DNA from: a virus
IMG/VR virus record: IMGVR_UViG_3300045988_161114
Coordinates: 1 to 64,000 of that record
DNA length: 64,000 nucleotides
Direction: 5' to 3' (one strand)
The notes beneath the pieces were generated by a model. That model saw only the letters and a list, made by a program, of their open reading frames with translations. It did no database searches and had not been told where the DNA came from. This document shows positions 1 through 38,505 of this stretch, in pieces. Each line of letters starts with the position of its first letter. Positions within the stretch are counted from its first letter, which is position 1. A program made the translations under genes and the position numbers.

Positions 1-240
1 GAGAACTTACTGCTGTGTATATTTTAAGAATCCCGCGAGTCTTCGGTTAATGACTCCCTCCCCAATGAGTGTTATTGGAATGCCGAACATAGCTAGAATA
101 ATGTTGGTTTATCAGTTTTTTCCAAAACTGTTTGTCTTCTTTATATAGTTTCAGACATGGGAAATTATATTGAACCATAGGCGTTAATTATGACTAGAGT
201 TTATCCTTCTAGAGATTGATAACCTGAAAAGGATTACAAT

Positions 241-1811: not shown

Positions 1812-1881
1812 TGCGAATTAGTGTAACGGTAGCACACGAGGCTCATAACCTTGAGGTCCAGTTCGACTCTGTGGTTCGCAT
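1812..1881 (+). tRNA. tRNA-Met-like (anticodon CAT), short and non-canonical
   Basis: Acceptor tgcgaat/gttcgca. D stem gtgt/gcac. Anticodon stem cgagg/ccttg with loop ctCATaa. The variable loop is only ~3 nt and the T stem tccag/ctgtg has a C-U mismatch. No CCA. Confidence 0.5.
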
Positions 1882-1892
1882 CCGTTTTATAG

Positions 1893-1906
1893 ATTCTTTA
1901 GAGAAT
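1893..1906 (+). repeat. TTAG-loop hairpin (attct-ttag-agaat) followed by a T-run
   Basis: Copy of the recurring motif ATyCyTTAGrGrAT. It lies just after tRNA-Met and ~15 nt before GC-rich island A. Confidence 0.5.
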
Positions 1907-1920
1907 TTTTTATTTGCTTA

Positions 1921-2017
1921 AAAATTTTCAAAGCCCACGGCTCCGTACTATTCCGTACCCGTTTGGCGCATGACCCGCACGGACGTCGAGTACAACGCCA
2001 AGGCTCTTGAAAATTTT
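1921..2017 (+). ncRNA. candidate structured small RNA (GC-rich island A)
   Basis: A ~66-nt GC-rich core with no ORF, set in an AT-rich background. It is closed by a ~15-bp inverted repeat, aaaattttcaaagcc / ggct(c)ttgaaaatttt. The inner stem is ttggcg/cgccaa. It sits inside the tRNA cluster. Confidence 0.45.
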
Positions 2018-2041
2018 TTCTGGCTTTTAGTCAGATTTTTA

Positions 2042-2057
2042 CATTCCTTAGGGAATG
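2042..2057 (+). repeat. TTAG-loop hairpin (cattcc-ttag-ggaatg)
   Basis: Perfect 6-bp stem with a ttag loop, followed by AT-rich tract. Same motif family as 1893, 4473 and 38361. Confidence 0.5.
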
Positions 2058-2071
2058 ATATATTTATTTAT

Positions 2072-2123
2072 TTTTTGATTATCTGATCTGATCACAAGTG
2101 ATCATATCATATCTAATCAAAAA
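2072..2123. repeat. imperfect GATC-rich palindrome
   Basis: Outer arms are tttttgatta / taatcaaaaa and inner arms tgatcac / gtgatca. Three GATC sites fall within ~20 nt. Confidence 0.5.
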
Positions 2124-2144
2124 CAGGCATACGTCTGACTTTTA

Positions 2145-2220
2145 GGTTATTTAGTGTAGTCGGTTAGCACATATCCCTCATAAGGATATAGCAGTAGTTC
2201 AAGTCTACTAATAACCTCCA
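2145..2220 (+). tRNA. tRNA with CAT anticodon (Met or lysidine-Ile2), CCA encoded
   Basis: Acceptor ggttatt/aataacc. Anticodon stem tatcc/ggata with loop ctCATaa. T arm agtag-ttcaagt-ctact. Confidence 0.8.
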
Positions 2221-2226
2221 AGTATA

Positions 2227-2297
2227 GCTGCCATAATATAATGGTATTATATTGGCTTTGTAATCCAGGTATATAGGTTCGATTCCTATTGGCAACA
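2227..2297 (+). tRNA. tRNA-Thr (anticodon TGT)
   Basis: Acceptor gctgcca/tggcaac with one C-A mismatch. Anticodon loop ttTGTaa. T arm atagg-ttcgatt-cctat. No CCA. Confidence 0.6.
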
Positions 2298-2298
2298 T

Positions 2299-2314
2299 CA
2301 ATATTTAGATATTG
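2299..2314 (+). repeat. TTAG-loop hairpin (caatat-ttag-atattg)
   Basis: 6-bp stem with a ttag loop, starting 2 nt after tRNA-Thr. A second hairpin, gaatct-t7-agattc, follows at 2321..2339. Confidence 0.45.
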
Positions 2315-2343
2315 GTTTTAGAATCTTTTTTTTAGATTCCTAC

Positions 2344-2457
2344 TGCTGATCAAACGCAAGGTTAGATCAGCAGGATCCTAGGGCCCTTCCGTGCCGGTGC
2401 CTTCGTGTCACCTGGTCCGGTCAGCCCCTGGCCTACATTTACTGTAGGACTTTTACT
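2344..2457 (+). ncRNA. candidate structured small RNA (GC-rich island B)
   Basis: 9-bp hairpin ctgctgatc/gatcagcag, then a GC-rich tract (ggcccttccgtgccggtgccttcgtgtcacctggtccggtcagcccctggcc) with nested ccgg and ggtg/cacc pairings, then hairpin cctaca/tgtagg. No ORF. Confidence 0.45.
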
Positions 2458-2552
2458 ATCAAGTTATTGATCATATATATGTTCGACTCACTTACTAATT
2501 AACATGATATTGGATCATAAAATTCTAAGTGTGTTATTGTATATGACTTTCA

Positions 2553-2590
2553 AAAAGCTCCGGAGTTTTTTACTCTGGAGCTTTTTCATT
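2553..2590 (+). terminator. rho-independent terminator closing the tRNA/sRNA cluster
   Basis: Stem aaaagctccggag / ctctggagctttt with one G-U pair. Loop is tttttta, and a T-run follows. Confidence 0.7.
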
Positions 2591-2606
2591 TAATAGGATT
2601 TGTTTT

Positions 2607-3161
2607 ATGGGAATATTTACTGGTGATATTTTAAATTATTTTAAAATAATTAAAGATATAGATAATTTAATTGATCCAAATTTTAGATTTTTAAATCCTG
2701 AAGAAGTAAATTCTTTAAAATTCTTTAAAAGATATTTTAGTCATCTTCCTCTTAGATTTTACGATGGCAGGTTAAAATCTGGTGCCGATTTTAAAAAATA
2801 TATAAAAGATTCTAATTTGCTTAAGTTCATTGATTATTTTAGGATTTACCCTATTTTAAGAGACTGTAAAATGTTTTTTGTTATTGTCCCTTATTCTTAT
2901 AATAATCCAATACTTACTAAAAAATCTAGTAATTTAGATTCTATTGCTGCTATTGTTGATAATTTAGATGATTTTGAATTTAGTGGTGATGATGAATTAG
3001 TTTATAAGAATATTATTCTTAAATTTCCTAAATTTAAAAAGAATTATATTTCTTATAGAAAAAGATTCTTTAGAGAAAATGACGATTTGGTTAGAGCAAT
3101 ACAAGAGCGGCGCAATAGATTCAGAATTCGACAAGTTATTTTTGATGAAGTTCTATTTTGA
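2607..3161 (+). CDS. hypothetical protein
   Basis: 184-aa ORF starting after the terminator. No recognisable motifs. Confidence 0.7.
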   Translation: MGIFTGDILNYFKIIKDIDNLIDPNFRFLNPEEVNSLKFFKRYFSHLPLRFYDGRLKSGADFKKYIKDSNLLKFIDYFRIYPILRDCKMFFVIVPYSYNNPILTKKSSNLDSIAAIVDNLDDFEFSGDDELVYKNIILKFPKFKKNYISYRKRFFRENDDLVRAIQERRNRFRIRQVIFDEVLF

Positions 3162-4587: not shown

Positions 4588-4908
4588 ATGAAAAATCCTT
4601 CGACTTATATTTTTAAAGAGTTGAAGAATGCGTTTGAAACATTTTGTGATTACGCAAAAATGAGTATTGTTTCTGATGCTCATTATATGTTTAGCAATGA
4701 CACTATCGCTAATACTGGAGTATTGGTATTAGCAACAAGTCATTTTGCTTGGCATACTTTTCCTGAACATGATTATATTTCGATTCAATATAGTACATGT
4801 TCAGAAGATAATTTAAGTGAAGATCAGGTTAAATCATTACTGGAATTATCATTTAAAAATAATAACATAAAATTTGGAGAAATTTTATGTTGTAAAGTGA
4901 TTTTTTAG
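4588..4908 (+). CDS. speD: S-adenosylmethionine decarboxylase-like (pyruvoyl, SpeH/SpeD class 1)
   Basis: VLVLATSHFAWHTFPEHDYISIQYSTCSED matches the family core ESH(I/L)xIHTWPE...D(I/V)FTCG. Start moved to the ATG at 4588, downstream of the hairpin; 4528 or 4564 remain possible. Confidence 0.5.
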   Translation: MKNPSTYIFKELKNAFETFCDYAKMSIVSDAHYMFSNDTIANTGVLVLATSHFAWHTFPEHDYISIQYSTCSEDNLSEDQVKSLLELSFKNNNIKFGEILCCKVIF

Positions 4909-5482: not shown

Positions 5483-5838
5483 AGATCAATGTAAGAATGT
5501 GGCCAAAAAGAGCTTCAGATAAACATTCTGGCTCTGGATTTGTAGTGATAGCGGACGCAGTTCAGCTAAACTTTACAATATGGGGAGACCCATCTAAAGG
5601 CTATTTTGTTTCTTATCCAGGTTATAAAAAGACTGATGGTAAGTGGCAAGAAACTGCCGGACCTATCAATAAAGAAGCGCGTGACAGTATTTCTGAGGCA
5701 ATTCTAAAAGAAGCTGGATTGATAGGCGGATTAAAACCAAAAGCTAGCTCAGATGAAGCCCCAGAAGAGACTAAGAAACCTATTAAGGCGGAAGAAGTTA
5801 AATCTGAAGCCCATATACCATCTGGAGCACCTTGGTAA
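5479..5838 (+). CDS. spoVG: SpoVG-like DNA/RNA-binding protein with K/E-rich tail
   Basis: FVVIADAVQLNFTIWGDPSKGYFVSYPGYKKTDGKWQETAGPINKEARDSISEAILKE parallels the SpoVG core ([37 protein letters not shown]..AVL). Confidence 0.6.
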   Translation: MKINVRMWPKRASDKHSGSGFVVIADAVQLNFTIWGDPSKGYFVSYPGYKKTDGKWQETAGPINKEARDSISEAILKEAGLIGGLKPKASSDEAPEETKKPIKAEEVKSEAHIPSGAPW

Positions 5839-6311
5839 TGGCCGAGTATGATGTTTCTAAAGAGGCAAAACATTATTCGATTTTTAAAGGCAAATCTGCC
5901 CTTAGATTTCGATTGGTAAAACCTCAAGTTGTTGAAGAAAGCACTAATAAAAAACTTAATGCTGGATTTGTATTTTTGGAAGCGGCACCTGTAAAAGATG
6001 CCAATGCTAAAAATAAAACATACCAATGGGAAAACAAGAAAATTGGAATAAAATTGGGTATGCCTGATTTACAAAAATTAGGATATGCAATTGAACGTGG
6101 ACTAGATGTTGATTTATTCCATGAATTTAATGGCAACACAAAAACAATTGGACTTAAACGTTCAACTGGTGGAGCCTCTCCATATTTCTTGTCTGTTGCA
6201 CAAAATGTAGATGGAGAAAAATCCTCACTATCTATTCCTTTGAGTGTTGATGAAACATTCGCTTTGAGTGTTTTAATTAAGCATTCAATTCCTTCAATTT
6301 TGAATTGGTAA
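5838..6311 (+). CDS. Whirly-like single-stranded DNA-binding protein
   Basis: YSIFKGKSALRFRLVKP, YQWENKKIGIKLGMPDLQKLG, LFHEFNG..TKTIGLKRS, YFLSVAQNV..SLSIPLSVDETFALSVLIKHSIPSILNW all match the Whirly/p24 pattern recalled from memory. The ATG at 5838 overlaps the preceding stop codon (taatg). Confidence 0.55.
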   Translation: MAEYDVSKEAKHYSIFKGKSALRFRLVKPQVVEESTNKKLNAGFVFLEAAPVKDANAKNKTYQWENKKIGIKLGMPDLQKLGYAIERGLDVDLFHEFNGNTKTIGLKRSTGGASPYFLSVAQNVDGEKSSLSIPLSVDETFALSVLIKHSIPSILNW

Positions 6312-10538: not shown

Positions 10539-11948
10539 ATGACAGTAACGAATACTACTATTGGTGGCAGCGATCAAGCTGCCGCTACTGCTAATCCGGC
10601 TCCTGTTATGAGTCTGGCTGCATTATCATCTCTTATTACTGGCGTTGAAAAACCTGAAGTCTTTATTGGCGAAAAAGGTAAAAAACGTGGTGATATTTCT
10701 ATAATGCAGGACGGTATGTACCGTATTTTTTCTTCGCCTATTGGCGACTTTTTTATTCTTAAAGACGAATTTAAGAATAAGCTTTTCCACCTGCCTGAGG
10801 GCAAAGTTACATTTACTCCTAATCCTGATTTCCCTAAAATTCCAGGACGTTATTATAAAGCTATTTGTGATTTTTATAAAACCATTTATGCTACCAATAA
10901 GAACGAAGTAATGGCTCAAATCTGGTGGGATAAAGAACTAAAAGAATTCTTTATTGAGGTTCCTGTTCAACGTGTTGCTGCTGCTAGTATTTCTTTTGAT
11001 AAAACTGGTCCATTCTATGATGACCCTAATAAGGTCCTTGTAGTAACAAGTCATTCTCATCATACTATGGGTGCTTTTTATAGTGGAACTGATAAATCTG
11101 ATGAAGCTAAACACAATGGTATTTATTCATTTGTATTTGGCGGATTAAAAATTAATCCTGATGGTACTTATACTAACACTACAGTACAGCGTTGTGTTTA
11201 TGATAAGTATGAGTTTTTACTTCAATTGTCAGATATTTTTGATTTAGAGGATCCTCTTATCGGGACTATTTCTATTCCTGAAAGTGAATATTCTAAAGTT
11301 ACAGCAATTAATGCTGCCCCTAAATATCCTTCTCATTTGACTGGATATTCTTATGGTAAAACTGGCAGTAATTCTAATGTCAAAAAAGGTGGCCATCAAC
11401 ATTACAATGGTAAAGGATGGAAACCAGGCATTGATTATAATCTTTGGGATTATGATTTTGCTGACGAAGATTATTCTGATCTTTATAATTCTGTAATGTC
11501 CGTAAATAATAATAATCCTGGCTATGGGCATAATCCATTCCCTCATCCTGTTAAGATGAATATGTGGGATTATGTTGACCCTGTTGATTACGATGGAATT
11601 TTTGAACAATATTGCGGTGACTCAACTGGATTTACTACAGAAGAAATTCAAGAAATTTATAAAGCCGGCTCAGTCATTATAGACATTTTGCAGAAAAAAG
11701 CTGGCAGTTATGACAAAAATTGTTGTCTTGTACAATCGTTCATAGATACAATTGCTAGCCATGATGTGTCTGATAAACTTGAAAAAACAATTTTTAATGG
11801 CTTAATGCATGGTATTCATGCATATATGCTTAAAAGTAGTAAAGCTATAGATGAAGACATTGACTCTTTTGTAGAAGAGATAGGAATGGTTAGGTATAGT
11901 ATTCAAGACTGTATTGTTAAAAAAGACCCTTTTAAAAACGTTCCATAG
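10539..11948 (+). CDS. JAB/MPN (JAMM) metallopeptidase domain protein with long C-terminal extension
   Basis: Glu in FFIEVPVQ, then VVTSHSHHTMGAFYSGTD, which gives H-x-H-x7-S-x2-D, the complete JAMM motif. 469 aa. Confidence 0.75.
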   Translation: MTVTNTTIGGSDQAAATANPAPVMSLAALSSLITGVEKPEVFIGEKGKKRGDISIMQDGMYRIFSSPIGDFFILKDEFKNKLFHLPEGKVTFTPNPDFPKIPGRYYKAICDFYKTIYATNKNEVMAQIWWDKELKEFFIEVPVQRVAAASISFDKTGPFYDDPNKVLVVTSHSHHTMGAFYSGTDKSDEAKHNGIYSFVFGGLKINPDGTYTNTTVQRCVYDKYEFLLQLSDIFDLEDPLIGTISIPESEYSKVTAINAAPKYPSHLTGYSYGKTGSNSNVKKGGHQHYNGKGWKPGIDYNLWDYDFADEDYSDLYNSVMSVNNNNPGYGHNPFPHPVKMNMWDYVDPVDYDGIFEQYCGDSTGFTTEEIQEIYKAGSVIIDILQKKAGSYDKNCCLVQSFIDTIASHDVSDKLEKTIFNGLMHGIHAYMLKSSKAIDEDIDSFVEEIGMVRYSIQDCIVKKDPFKNVP

Positions 11949-11955
11949 TTTATGC

Positions 11956-11979
11956 TGGGGCCTAGTGCCCCATTTTTTC
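11956..11979 (+). terminator. rho-independent terminator
   Basis: Stem tggggc / gcccca, loop ctagt, then tttttt. Confidence 0.6.
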
Positions 11980-12002
11980 TAATATTTTATATTGGATTTT
12001 AA

Positions 12003-13676
12003 ATGAGTATTTATAGAGAAGTAAAAGATAGTTCATCTCAAACGTATCAAATTATTAGTGATGAACAACGTCAACGTACAGACTTTTTAAATAAAAAAGC
12101 CGAAGAGATTGGCAAGAAGGCCTTTTTGAAAGGCGGCTTGCAATATCTATTTTCTGTAAAAGATTTGAATAAATTTTATACAGATCCTACACCTGAAATT
12201 AAATTAGGCAAAGTAACTGTAATTGGATGTGGCGGTACTGGTTCATGGTTAATGCCTAAGTTGGCTAAAACTATTAATGATTTAATTCGTAAAAATATTA
12301 TTTTTAAAGACAGTTTTTGTTTAAATCTTGTTGATTTCGACACGGTTAACCTGATTTTTCTAACCGGCCGTGTATAAATTTGCCCTAATTGACTTGGACC
12401 TCTGGCATAACAGAAAACAAGGCGCAAGCAGAGGTTATCCCTCGTGCAGCGTGAACGACTAATGCGGGTGAACACTTAATTGTGAAGCGATAGTCTGTAC
12501 TGCATCGGAAATATGCGATTAAGAGATGCAGAGCAAGGCGGAACAGAAACGACCTTGCCCTTACTTTATGTAAGAGTAACAATAAGCGAAACTAAAAATC
12601 TTGTGCGGCAGAACTTTATTGAGGCTGATATTGGTAAAAATAAAGCTGAAGTAATGGCTATGCGTTATGGATCTACGTTGTCTGAAGGTACTCAATGTGT
12701 ATTTTATGACAAGTATCTTGCACTAGATCCTTCTAAAAAAGAACATCCAGAAGCGTTTATCTCTTTTGATGATGTTTTAGGTTCTACAATTAATAAAAAT
12801 AAATTTGTTAGTGTTATTTTCAATCTTGTGGATAATGATGTTGAGCGTCGTGAATTACATAAATGGATTCGTGATTCTAGATCTCCATACATAGTTATTG
12901 ATATTGGGAATGAACAGACTCATGGTCAGTTATTTGCGTCATATTATAATATGGCTAATATTGATCAGTCATATGAAAAATATGTCAAGAATGTTCCATT
13001 GATTCTTCAAGACTCTTTTGCTGAATATAATCAAGCGATTATTACATCAGATGAAGATGTAGTTGTATTCTCATGTGCAGAAGCTGATGTTTCTGAAGAA
13101 TTTCAAGATCAATTTTTAGTGGCAAATGATGTTGCAGCAACTGTTGGTCATTCATATTTTGTTACATTAATCGATAATCTCACTAAGCATAGATTTACAA
13201 GTCCTTTGCCTCAAGAGATTCGATTTAGTGCAATGTCTCCGGTTCTAGTAACTACTGAACGCAAAGTTTACAATGAGCATGTTCTTTCTTGTATTGAATC
13301 TGCAATTAAGCTTAAAGAAGCTATTGGTGAAGACCAAGTAAAAAGACTGTTTGATATCTTTGATAAAGTTATTTCTTCTCAAAGTTCTTTTGCTTCTAGC
13401 AATAATACTATCAGGATTATTCCTGAAGATGAAAGATGTTATGGCTGGTTTTCTGATTTTATCGATAGAAATATCGGTAATAAAAAGATCAACAAAGAAC
13501 TCAAAAAGCAATTACTAGATGCATGTGCCCCCTCAATGGCTTATCGTACCGGATATCCTAATAACTATAGAGTCAATTATTATGAAATTGATAAAGATTA
13601 TGGCCAATATCTTGGTTATTCTTTAGCCCTTCTTTATTGCGTTTATTCTGTTTTAAAGATTGCTCAATACATTTAA
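12003..13676 (+). CDS. ThiF/MoeB/E1-like adenylyltransferase, two exons: join(12003..12346,12587..13676)
   Basis: Rossmann motif VTVIGCGGTGSW. The spliced junction gives LVDFDTV|ETKNLVRQNFIEADIGKNKAEV, which restores the E1 motif D-x-D-x-V-E-x-x-N-L-x-R-Q...DIGxxKA. Unspliced, exon 1 runs into a stop codon. Confidence 0.75.
12347..12586 (+). mobile_element. group I intron (ORF-less, 240 nt) in the E1-like gene
   Basis: A GC-richer block splits a conserved motif. The exon ends in U (acggt|) and the intron ends in G (aataag|c). Core-like gcgatagtctgtactgcatcgg resembles the gatatagtctgctctgcatgg region of the T4 td intron. Confidence 0.75.
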
Positions 13677-13734: not shown

Positions 13735-15834
13735 ATGTATAGATATATTACAGATAATAAGTTTTGGTATTCGCTTGTTGTTGTTACTTCTGGATATGCT
13801 AATAAGTGCTCTTTGATCTTAGATCAAATTATTAAAGGCGAATCCGCTATCAATAAGGACTTAGGTCAAAAATGTTATATTAAGAATAGTAAAGAAAACG
13901 TTACTAAATCTATAAACTTATTGAACCAATGTGTCAACAAGAATAAGTTTCGGGAAATGTACTTCCCCGATTTTGGTAGTAGAGCTGAATTATTAAATGC
14001 TTACTCTATTGTATCTGAATTTTTATCTGATTTTGCCGATACCATTCTGTTTAGAAATTATACAAATAGAAAGGGTCGCAAAATCACTGCAATGAATACT
14101 CTTTTATCTGAAGAAGATAGAGAGAATATAAAATATTTTCATCGGTTATATACAGCTATATTTGAATGTGAATATGATAGAGCACTTCACAATATGTGTT
14201 TGAGCGCCAATGTAATTGGGTTTAGAAAAAGCATGAGCATCGCTAATACTGTACATATGCTCAAATTTAATCGTATTGAAATTATAAATATAGACATTGC
14301 TAAATTTTTTAACAATGTTGATATGAAGAAATTTTTTGATAATGATGTTGTAAATATTCTTTTTAATTCTATTTTGGGTAATAAATATGAATATTTAGAA
14401 TATTTATTTGATAAGCCGCTTAATGTCTTTTCTTTGGATTATTCCAATAAGAATCCTAAAGATTTTGTAAGTTGCCCACCGTCTTTTAAATTTAATGGCA
14501 GTGATGTTATTTCTATAGTACCCTCTTTTGGCGGTACTGCTTTTATTCAAAGAAGGTCGAATAATGATAAGGCAAGATATGGAAGAATGTACAGCTTCTT
14601 ATTGTCTAACTCATCTAATGTTGGCAGTATTTATAAAGTAAATGATTCAGGTTATTCAATAAGATTAAGAGATCCTGGTATTCCAGATAAAAGGGAATTT
14701 TTCCTTCAATTCTTTTATCGAACTCTATCATTCTTAATGCATAATAATAAACTTCCCACAGGTGCTTCTTATAGTCCCGTCTTGAGTAATATATTTTTAC
14801 TTGATTTTGATATAAAGCTCAAAAAACTTCTCGATTCAATGTCTGTAAATACGAGATATAATTTTATTAGGTATGCTGATGATATAACTATTTATACTTC
14901 CAAGAAGAATATTATTAGTGAAACTGTTCTTCCTACTGATGGACGTATTAATTTATATCCTAATACAGATGATATTATTAGTTCTGACAATGAAATAGAT
15001 TTTTCTGTTGCTAAAAGAGTTGAAGAGCTTATTAATCAATACGGACTGTATTTAAATTATAGCAAGACTAAGATTTTTAGAAGGCATGAAGAAGCTTCTA
15101 TTTTAGGCTTAACTATACCAGCTGTTGATAAAGCTACTATTAGCGATATAAAAATCGGATCTTCAAGAAGAAAAGAAATGATTGATTTAATTTCTAATTC
15201 TTTAGATTTCGATTATGATTCTAAGACTAAAGGATTTTTATCCTATTGTATTACTAATGGCGGAATGAGAGATTTTGTGATTCATCATGGTATGAATTCT
15301 AAATTGAATGACCCTAGTTTAAAAAATATCTTTGAAAAGTATTTCAATAAGTCATCTTTTAATAGCTTCAGAGAATTGTTTTATGACATATCTAAAGATT
15401 CTAAGACTATAAGAATTACCATATTTAATGATCTTATCAGAATAAATTTCCATAATAGACTGGTAAATCATTATATGCATAATATAACTGTCAGGAAAGA
15501 TATAAATGTTTCTGAATTCTTTATTGCTCATGGTGACATATTTAATAATATAACTGTTTCCGAATTAAGACTTATGCTTATATATTATATAATGTATAAA
15601 GAATTTATATTTATTGGAAGTTATTTACGAAGAGATGAGGATAGAGTAAGGTTGTTACTTAAGTCTTATACACGAATGGGAAGTGTTATTGCTTTCCCGC
15701 TGGATGTATATTCTGACGCTATTAATGAAGAGTCCTATTATTCCGATTTAAGAAATATTTTTGAAGGCGATGAAAAAGCTTTAGAATATATAGATTTATT
15801 TGAGGCTATTGAAAATAGCAGAGGGGTAAATTAA
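13735..15834 (+). CDS. reverse transcriptase (stand-alone, 699 aa, unclassified lineage)
   Basis: RT motifs in order: A NIDIAKFFNNV; B LPTGASYSPVLSNIFLLDFD; C FIRYADDITIY; D/E LYLNYSKTKIF and ILGLTI. There is a ~170-aa N-terminal extension, an unusually long A-B spacer and a ~230-aa C-terminal extension. Confidence 0.85.
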   Translation: MYRYITDNKFWYSLVVVTSGYANKCSLILDQIIKGESAINKDLGQKCYIKNSKENVTKSINLLNQCVNKNKFREMYFPDFGSRAELLNAYSIVSEFLSDFADTILFRNYTNRKGRKITAMNTLLSEEDRENIKYFHRLYTAIFECEYDRALHNMCLSANVIGFRKSMSIANTVHMLKFNRIEIINIDIAKFFNNVDMKKFFDNDVVNILFNSILGNKYEYLEYLFDKPLNVFSLDYSNKNPKDFVSCPPSFKFNGSDVISIVPSFGGTAFIQRRSNNDKARYGRMYSFLLSNSSNVGSIYKVNDSGYSIRLRDPGIPDKREFFLQFFYRTLSFLMHNNKLPTGASYSPVLSNIFLLDFDIKLKKLLDSMSVNTRYNFIRYADDITIYTSKKNIISETVLPTDGRINLYPNTDDIISSDNEIDFSVAKRVEELINQYGLYLNYSKTKIFRRHEEASILGLTIPAVDKATISDIKIGSSRRKEMIDLISNSLDFDYDSKTKGFLSYCITNGGMRDFVIHHGMNSKLNDPSLKNIFEKYFNKSSFNSFRELFYDISKDSKTIRITIFNDLIRINFHNRLVNHYMHNITVRKDINVSEFFIAHGDIFNNITVSELRLMLIYYIMYKEFIFIGSYLRRDEDRVRLLLKSYTRMGSVIAFPLDVYSDAINEESYYSDLRNIFEGDEKALEYIDLFEAIENSRGVN

Positions 15835-38376: not shown

Positions 38377-38390
38377 ATATTTTATATTTT

Positions 38391-38505
38391 CTGTACAATC
38401 GCTTTGGGATTGTACAGACACTCAGCCAGATCTGCATGCATCAGCTGCAGCTCCAGGCTGAGCCGGGTCTATTACCTTAGTATTTATTATTGAGTTATAC
38501 GACCC
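38391..38505 (+). ncRNA. candidate structured small RNA (GC-rich island C)
   Basis: 10-bp hairpin ctgtacaatc / gattgtacag, then the GC-rich stem ctcagcc...ggctgag enclosing ctgcatgcatcagctgcag, then gggtc...gaccc. There is no ORF. The layout matches islands A and B. Confidence 0.45.

Follow-up and report, generated by a model that had tools for sequence, protein, structure and literature searches.

Structurally constrained GC-rich elements between the tRNA genes of a human gut phage that encodes a Ro60 homologue

Two short GC-rich blocks lie between the transfer RNA (tRNA) genes at the start of a 64,000-nucleotide (nt) stretch of viral DNA, positions 1 to 64,000 of the IMG/VR record IMGVR_UViG_3300045988_161114, which we call the window. 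These blocks, element A and element B, are genuine, non-coding, structurally constrained elements with compensating changes in their stems, and each of them is present in one copy and at the identical site in 13 of the 13 genomes compared. The invariant loops, carried on covarying stems, indicate that both folds are under selection. As far as can be judged from sequence comparison, A and B are single-copy, lineage-specific elements that belong to no described RNA family.

The phage is AT-rich (32.0% GC in the window), and among its genes are those for a DnaE-type polymerase, a primase-helicase and a ribonucleotide reductase. A human gut metagenome contig of 184,711 base pairs (bp) (ENA ERZ914781, k127_25176; locus L008) matches the window with 0 mismatches in the 13,161 nt compared, and its coordinates are used here for the sequence upstream (window position = L008 position - 7394). 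The DNA-level search of GenBank phages showed no relative, the matches being tRNA-sized only, and pattern and protein scans of IMG/VR gave one related contig only. In public data, the protein encoded downstream of the locus (2607-3161) forms six clusters at 90% identity, which range from 100% down to 50% identity. The contigs of these flanking-protein clusters, together with the IMG/VR contig and seven metagenome contigs matching a B-derived pattern, provided 13 distinct versions of the locus, in genomes of roughly 177-185 kb. We divided them into subclade 1 (the window, L016, L026, L001, L003, L015 and L004) and subclade 2 (L005, L006, L007, L020, L022 and L025), between which the flanking protein is 50-52% identical.

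Element A is a rod in which windows of 60 nt reach a GC content of 0.53-0.60. Its plus strand folds with -36.2 kcal/mol (z = -3.97), a value that 0 of 200 shuffles equalled, and its minus strand has z = -4.11. The closing helix P1 is the longest inverted repeat of the entire 64-kb window and bears out the clamp of about 15 bp noticed in a preliminary description of this DNA, made from the letters alone; the bulged C of subclade 1 is C2006. When MAFFT and RNAalifold were run on the raw sequences the arms were misaligned and the consensus was meaningless, so these alignments were replaced by hand-made, N-padded ones. In the hand-registered alignment of A, two-sided changes are found at 8 of the 17 pairs of P1, and 98.2% of the cells are paired; with the partner shifted by 1-3 columns, this value falls to 32-58%. 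The middle section varies in sequence between the subclades and is paired in each of them (for example, CGT/ACG in the window and CATA/TATG in L001). At the top, the apical module is nearly invariant in the 13 genomes, while the stems beneath it diverge. A covariance model of A (R1) recovered one copy per genome in the 13 relatives, with 52-97 bits. The same description had pointed to an internal ttggcg/cgccaa helix, which falls outside the fold supported by covariation; since both segments are invariant, it is only a possible alternative pairing. The duplicated ccgtac that it also mentioned is present in the lineage of the window and absent from most relatives.

Element B consists of three tandem hairpins, H1, P2 and P3, in agreement with the 9-bp hairpin, GC-rich core and cctaca/tgtagg hairpin outlined previously. 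Its 60-nt windows reach 0.57-0.68 GC, and the plus strand folds with -48.6 kcal/mol (z = -3.62; 0/200 shuffles as good). In H1, 4 of the 13 pairs are changed on both sides between subclades, and L004 has lost one whole A-T pair. A linker of 3-4 nt leads to P2, which differs entirely between the subclades in sequence and in length (44-64 nt with the linker counted in), and yet a hairpin was always predicted, both in the first 7 homologues folded singly and in the group consensus folds that cover all 13. In P3, L004 carries the compensating pair CCCACA/TGTGGG, and the tail is kept across both subclades. This hairpin appeared as terminator-like in the scan of the plus strand, with 4 U only in the tail; read on minus, the loop is GAAA, GAAAA or GTAAA. 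Considering H1 and P3 together, two-sided changes occur at 5 of 19 pairs, and 93.6% of the cells are paired, compared with 22-36% when slid. Thus, the conservation and covariation in related phages that had been proposed as a check were found for both elements. A pairing of the loop region of A with the rod of B was discarded because the complementarity seen in the window is, by eye, absent from L001.

The description of A and B as GC-rich, non-coding blocks on an AT-rich background is also sustained, with GC up to 0.60 in A and 0.68 in B. The 38-codon open reading frame (ORF) at 1970-2086, which overlaps A, was rejected as coding, since 2 relatives lack the ATG and in the others it spans anything from 11 to 38 codons. 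ARAGORN and Rfam (gathering score on the window, and E <= 10 with permissive filters on 1850-2620) gave no match in 1920-2018 or 2343-2465, and together they detected all 8 neighbouring tRNAs; apart from tRNAs, Rfam returned noise only. Thus no tRNA cloverleaf was found, in line with the preliminary description, and no degenerate tRNA or intron match either, and the recommended Rfam scan identified no family. Searches of the rest of the window for copies of the A loop and the H1 motif of B, or for targets complementary to them, gave chance-level matches only; the H1 motif occurs once in the window. The core pattern of A had 12 matches in 185,579 GTDB species genomes, all limited to the 22-nt seed and located in GC-rich bacteria, which we attribute to chance.

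Table 1. Features of the locus and related genes (window coordinates unless L008 is given).
Feature	Position	Strand	Description
Element A	1920..2018	plus or minus	~99-nt rod-like hairpin
A closing helix P1	1920-1935 with 2002-2018		AAAAATTTTCAAAGCC with GGCT-C-TTGAAAATTTTT; 16-17 bp, one bulged C
A internal loop	above P1, within 1936..1941		A/C-rich; CAC vs AA (2000-2001) in subclade 1, AA vs ACA in subclade 2
A 3-bp helix	1939-1941 with 1997-1999		GGC with GCC; invariant in 7 sequences counted and in the 13-sequence alignment
A apical module	1960..1981		22 nt; CGT / TTYGGCGCATGRCCnnC / ACG
Element B	2343-2448, conserved tail to 2465	plus or minus	three tandem hairpins
B hairpin H1	2343..2373		13-position stem, one mismatch, loop GCAAG; top C-n-AAC GCAAG GTT-n-G conserved
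B hairpin P2	2377..2431		long irregular GC-rich rod
B hairpin P3 and tail	2432..2465		CCTACA/TGTAGG (2432-2448) abutting P2, then conserved tail ACTTTTACTATCAAGTT
Small hairpin before A	1891..1910	+	TTAG loop, T-run; conserved
Small hairpin directly after A	2020..2040 (terminator scan flags 2019-2035)	+	CTGGC/GTCAG then ATTTTT; terminator-like
Second small hairpin after A	2042-2057
Small hairpin before tRNA-Met	2124-2143
Small hairpin after tRNA-Thr	2299-2319
Small hairpin before B	2321-2339
Large hairpin	2553..2590	+	A-run before, T-run after; closes the RNA-gene region ahead of the first ORF at 2607
Reverse transcriptase	13735-15834		699 aa; RVT_1 52.4 bits, YADD box
Ro60 homologue	L008:2628-4205	+	525 aa, full-length (TROVE/vWA); 3.2 kb before the window start, inside the tRNA island

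The first 2.3 kb of the window are the end of a long tRNA island with 8 plus-strand tRNAs, 7 of them called by ARAGORN and a tRNA-Cys at 1732-1803 by Rfam. The order of the elements is tRNA Ser-Cys-Met, A, tRNA Met-Thr, B and then the closing terminator, and from 1 to 46 kb of the window every tRNA and ORF is on the plus strand. In the 13-genome alignment, the AT-rich spacer sequence on either side of A and B shows a conservation that is surprising in view of the identity of about 50% in the protein next door. It is made up of small hairpins, several of them with TTAG as the loop, each followed by a T-run. The hairpin at 1891-1910 shows a compensating change from GATTCT/AGAATT to AATCCT/AGGATT (consensus -3.7 on plus vs -2.3 on minus), and the one at 2020-2040 has a G-U pair on plus and, in L007, the compensating pair CTGGT/ACCAG (-6.6 on plus vs -2.4 on minus). 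The hairpin at 2553-2590, already taken for the terminator of the cluster, reaches -22.4 kcal/mol (plus) or -18.9 kcal/mol (minus) and is kept in relatives; flanked by an A-run and a U-run, it looks bidirectional. Energetically, both the small flanking hairpins and this one favour the plus strand, where they contain G-U pairs; we conclude that the plus strand is certainly transcribed and punctuated. The description of an intrinsic terminator fits the small flanking hairpins, not the rods: the whole rods were unflagged, and the GC core of A is 8 AU-rich pairs away from the U-run.

We tentatively propose, as a possible and by no means assured interpretation, that A and B are plus-strand spacer RNAs of the tRNA operons, structured and stable enough to remain as small RNAs whose loops bind protein, and that Ro60 may be a partner. 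Of the mechanisms considered, processing along with the tRNAs into stable RNAs is the most parsimonious. Both elements would be transcribed on the plus strand together with the tRNAs, and the precursor would be cut through the flanking small hairpins and AU-rich stretches, RNase P and the 3'-end processing of the adjoining tRNAs. The GC-rich rods would then withstand exonucleases and remain as small RNAs of about 100 nt, whose invariant loops (the apical 22 nt of A, the top of H1, and P3 with its tail in B) could be recognised, most probably by a protein, the stems serving as scaffold. The most plausible partner, chiefly of A, would be the phage Ro60 homologue encoded 5 kb upstream on the same strand. 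The plus-strand transcript, its processing, the stability of the products and the protein partner are the parts that we infer.

The Ro60 homologue, located 3.2 kb ahead of the window start, is a point that goes beyond the preliminary description. A Ro60-type gene was first seen upstream of the locus in L007, and it is present in both subclades. The protein scores 53.7 bits on PF25045 (Ro60 vWA domain), can be aligned to Ro-like proteins of phages along 95% of its length, with 39% identity to that of Myxococcus phage Mx1, and also matches the Ro60 of Thermus phage phiLo. In Mx1, the homologue likewise lies within a tRNA cluster. In the window's own genome, upstream of Ro60, are a cut RNA ligase gene (L008:1-46) and, between a 213-aa ORF and the Ro60 gene, a group I intron (L008:2263-2501; Rfam RF00028, 83.6 bits). 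The Ro60 gene is followed by an AAA_28 ATPase gene (L008:4833-5357) and by tRNA genes that carry insertions of some 50 nt. The latter comprise L008:4529-4666 (by eye), 4676-4797 and 5788-5911, the last two being full-length by Rfam with 122-124 nt, and are not called by ARAGORN; their insertions share the motif GAATGCnnTAAgnTTTACAtTT and may represent a family of small tRNA introns. The distance from the Ro60 stop codon to the start of A is 5.1 kb, and to B 5.5 kb, and the strands agree only if A and B act on plus. In favour of Ro60 as a partner, it is the phage's own gene on the same strand, and no canonical Y RNA was found near it: the Rfam YrlA model RF02553, which the library searched contains, had no match in window 1850-2620 (E <= 10) or in L008 1-10000 (E <= 5), a search which around Ro60 covered -2.6 to +5.8 kb.

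Several observations weigh against the plus-strand small RNA interpretation, and some of them concern Ro60. In bacteria and phages, known Y RNAs are encoded on the same strand as Ro60 and within about 4 kb of it; their 5' and 3' ends pair into a stem, they contain a motif of the GNCGAA type, and YrlA also possesses a tRNA-like module (PMC4201824; PMC12135203). The Ro60-binding motif GNCGAAN0-1G (or a GGUCCGA-like one) is near the 5' end of the Y RNA (PMC4201824). In L008 1-10600 we found GNCGAAN0-1G only within the variable arm of a tRNA-Arg, and A and B contain no conserved CGAA and neither a T nor a D arm. Their distance of 5.1-5.5 kb is beyond the 4 kb of bacterial Y RNAs (PMC4201824). Furthermore, a rival candidate partner exists, namely the hairpin-rich, AT-rich spacer right after Ro60 (L008:4206-4439, z = -2.7), which shows a CGAA within a stem-closed loop.

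The remaining objections arise from the strand. The consensus energy of A is better on minus by about 50% (plus -26.5 and minus -41.1 kcal/mol in subclade 1; -23.1 and -34.6 in subclade 2), and minus is also preferred by H1 alone (-12.6 and -16.6) and by the whole of B in subclade 2 (-46.9 and -60.8), the values for B in subclade 1 being -36.4 and -36.3. In the same alignment 5 tRNAs and 6 small hairpins all favour plus, unlike A, as do 7 of the 8 window tRNAs when folded singly. In addition, many positions of A toggle among close relatives between Watson-Crick pairs and A-C oppositions on plus, which correspond to G-U pairs on minus; on plus, A-C oppositions and G-U pairs amount to 55 vs 8 cells and 17 vs 4 columns. 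For the tRNA controls this column count does not discriminate (about 22 vs 21), so it was treated as uncalibrated and the comparison of consensus energies was relied on. On the minus strand, the internal loops of A close into G-U pairs and produce a nearly continuous hairpin of about 40-45 bp, and both elements are C-rich on plus. The likely co-transcription and processing with the tRNAs that had been suggested for A and B, which presumes the plus strand, is called into question by the energies of A and of part of B. On the other side, the composition-corrected shuffle z-scores are alike on both strands for A and B, at the base of P2 in B G-U and Watson-Crick pairs alternate on plus, the counts for B are balanced, unpaired positions on plus are A-rich, and A and B each precede a conserved U-run hairpin that favours plus. 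The minus strand has no recognisable conserved promoter and no terminator after either element; two candidate promoter consensus patterns did not recur upstream of genes. For A, then, the evidence of the fold leans toward minus and that of the context toward plus. Taken as a whole, the earlier interpretation is partly supported.

These strand results would be accommodated if, for A and perhaps B, the minus-strand fold were the one selected, either in an antisense RNA with its own promoter in the tRNA region or in a minus-sense single-stranded DNA hairpin. Such a hairpin could be a complementary DNA (cDNA) copied from the transcript of the tRNA operon, or it could form while the template is transiently single-stranded. 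We consider a minus-strand product rather unlikely. The energies of A, of subclade-2 B and of H1, opposite to those of the 11 plus-strand controls, argue for it, as do the excess of A-C oppositions in A, its nearly continuous hairpin, the GAAA-type loops of P3, the greater content of G than C on minus and the presence of a reverse-transcriptase (RT) gene 11.7 kb away. Against it stand the absence of a detected minus promoter or terminator and the plus orientation of all neighbouring genes, and the hairpin at 2553-2590 would halt minus transcripts arriving from the right. It should also be noted that only the energy test is calibrated, and that the shuffle scores and the balanced pairs of B give minus no advantage. 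Regarding the RT, its best matches in a defence library are retron RTs (about 1e-17). Retron RTs carry a VTG hallmark where this one reads LGL after motif 6, and its gene is not adjacent to A. That A, and possibly the rod of B, is copied by this retron-related RT into a hairpin resembling multicopy single-stranded DNA (msDNA), or expressed as antisense RNA, seems to us very improbable. If true, it would account for the better, more continuous and G-T/G-U-tolerant minus fold despite the transcription signals that point to plus, and it would mean that a large lytic gut phage makes a retron-like product within its tRNA operon. More generally, the minus-strand signal, if real, would imply an antisense or cDNA product from within a tRNA operon, for which we know of no precedent.

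Another explanation is that the rods are purely cis-acting punctuation, that is, entry points for a double-strand-specific nuclease such as RNase III, or barriers to 3'-to-5' exonucleases or transcription, that separate and stabilise tRNA sub-transcripts and are functionless once released. The position of A and B exactly between the tRNA groups and ahead of the closing terminator, the stems with free sequence and maintained pairing, the many highly conserved U-run hairpins all around and an apparent likeness in shape of A to the RNase III sites of phage T7 would suit it. However, a barrier or nuclease site needs no 22-nt apical module, H1 top and loop or P3 tail kept invariant across subclades, and the strand asymmetry would be left unexplained; we find this possibility doubtful. 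The neighbourhood also recalls selfish palindromic insertions, miniature mobile or of the repetitive extragenic palindrome (REP) type, landing in tRNA spacers, since one AU-clamped hairpin close to A (2072-2123) exists in alternative versions that cross subclades and another one, flanked by ATTTTA, occurs in L001, L004 and L013 only. A repeated or mobile palindrome was nevertheless discarded for A and B, which are single-copy and at the same place in 13/13 genomes; A is unique among the inverted repeats of the window, and the invariant loops with covarying stems point to selection on the fold, so that such an origin is highly unlikely. Finally, the adjoining tRNAs in a gut phage, and the group I intron and insertion-bearing tRNAs of the same island, could suggest a degenerate tRNA, an intron remnant or a small self-cleaving ribozyme, such as the theta ribozymes, similar to those of hepatitis delta virus (HDV), which would mature tRNA 3' ends. 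The cleavage site of theta ribozymes, which adopt an HDV-like double pseudoknot with a catalytic C, is no more than 5 nt from a tRNA 3' end (PMC10879173). The start of A is 36-37 nt past tRNA-Met, according to the end called, and in B H1 lies 46 nt and the GC core 80 nt past tRNA-Thr. Together with the negative ARAGORN and Rfam searches, which included no HDV-type match (no dedicated pseudoknot descriptor search was made), and with compensating changes that fit plain hairpins and not a nested double pseudoknot, this makes descent from a tRNA or intron, or a ribozyme, hardly conceivable.

Other aspects of the region deserve mention. The tRNA at 1732-1803 has an Rfam score of 45.1 bits and was missed by ARAGORN in the window, and its L001 homologue is called tRNA-Cys (GCA) by ARAGORN. 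The hairpins with a TTAG loop (1891-1910, 2042-2057 and 2299-2319) form a type that flanks the tRNAs and A and is followed by T-rich sequence, highly conserved and with compensating changes, which may be a phage-specific processing or termination signal. Between A and tRNA-Met, the AU-clamped hairpin at 2072-2123 has a core of which at least four variants exist (GATC-rich, GAATTC-containing and others); these cut across both subclades among the 13 genomes, as if exchanged by recombination. In L001 (5235-5318), and also in L004 and L013, an AU-clamped hairpin with a small companion hairpin is flanked on both sides by ATTTTA; it is absent from the window between 1890 and 1891 and thus constitutes an insertion/deletion polymorphism. 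Window positions 1-240, extended upstream to L008:6800, amount to about 830 nt free of ORFs and rich in hairpins, with one weak tRNA-like match, a fold z of -3.76 and no Rfam family, which could hold more RNA genes. Outside tRNAs and coding DNA, two other intergenic stretches in the window reach 55% GC; at 38390-38475, a GC-rich intergenic island (about 55% GC) shows by eye two hairpins, CTGTACAATC/GATTGTACAG and CTCAGCC/GGCTGAG. As for the surroundings of the RT gene, the ORFs just upstream (10539-13676) have weak JAB, ThiF and E1-like matches, the GC-rich island upstream of its operon (12372-12515) gave no significant fold, and a diversity-generating retroelement was rejected, no template/variable repeat pair being found within 9-22 kb.

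The tRNA islands of phages are usually annotated as tRNAs plus junk spacers, and here two of these spacers contain RNA-like elements that are clearly under selection for structure. The same phage also has genes for Ro60, RNA ligase and reverse transcriptase, together with a group I intron and tRNAs that bear insertions. Should A or B prove to be the partner of Ro60, they would define a class of Y RNA without a tRNA-like module and would offer a tractable system for the action of phage Ro60 on host or phage RNA. In any case, both motifs can be used in RNA family libraries and in the annotation of the present clade of gut phages.

Among known systems, species 1 and 2 of phage T4 (rnaC and rnaD), cited as a precedent in the preliminary description, are non-tRNA RNAs of about 100-140 nt with no known function, located within or at the end of a phage tRNA cluster. 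The precedent stands by position and not by homology. The rnaC RNA has a tRNA-like T arm (CCGGGTTCGAATCCCGG) and an acceptor-like stem, which A and B lack; rnaD folds without significance (z = -0.8), in contrast to A and B; the A model found nothing in the T4 locus (L010); and the present phage, with its DnaE-type polymerase and primase-helicase, is not T4-like. The RNase III sites in the early transcripts of phage T7 lie in hairpins between genes, 60-100 nt long, in which an asymmetric internal loop separates a lower stem from an upper one, and they punctuate a polycistronic transcript. A resembles this general description in its lower stem of about 17 bp, its asymmetric internal loop and its upper stems; invariant apical modules are, to our knowledge, not a feature of the T7 hairpins. 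Retrons resemble A in that A is a long hairpin clamped by flanking inverted repeats, whose cDNA-sense strand folds better; they differ in that the RT is not adjacent to A, which has neither separate msr stem-loops nor an identifiable branching G. With regard to Y RNAs, the comparison with YrlA (RF02553) and with Yrl1 and Yrl2 of phiLo rests on a size of about 100 nt and a nearby plus-strand Ro60 gene in a tRNA-rich island, and A alone also pairs its 5' and 3' ends into a long stem that a bulge and an internal loop interrupt (PMC4201824, PMC12135203), while B, with its three tandem hairpins, has no terminal stem. Given that the YrlA model and the motif were negative and that A shares the terminal-stem architecture only, A and B fail Y RNA membership. 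They are, according to our analysis, candidate non-canonical partners of Ro60, alongside the spacer located directly after the Ro60 gene.

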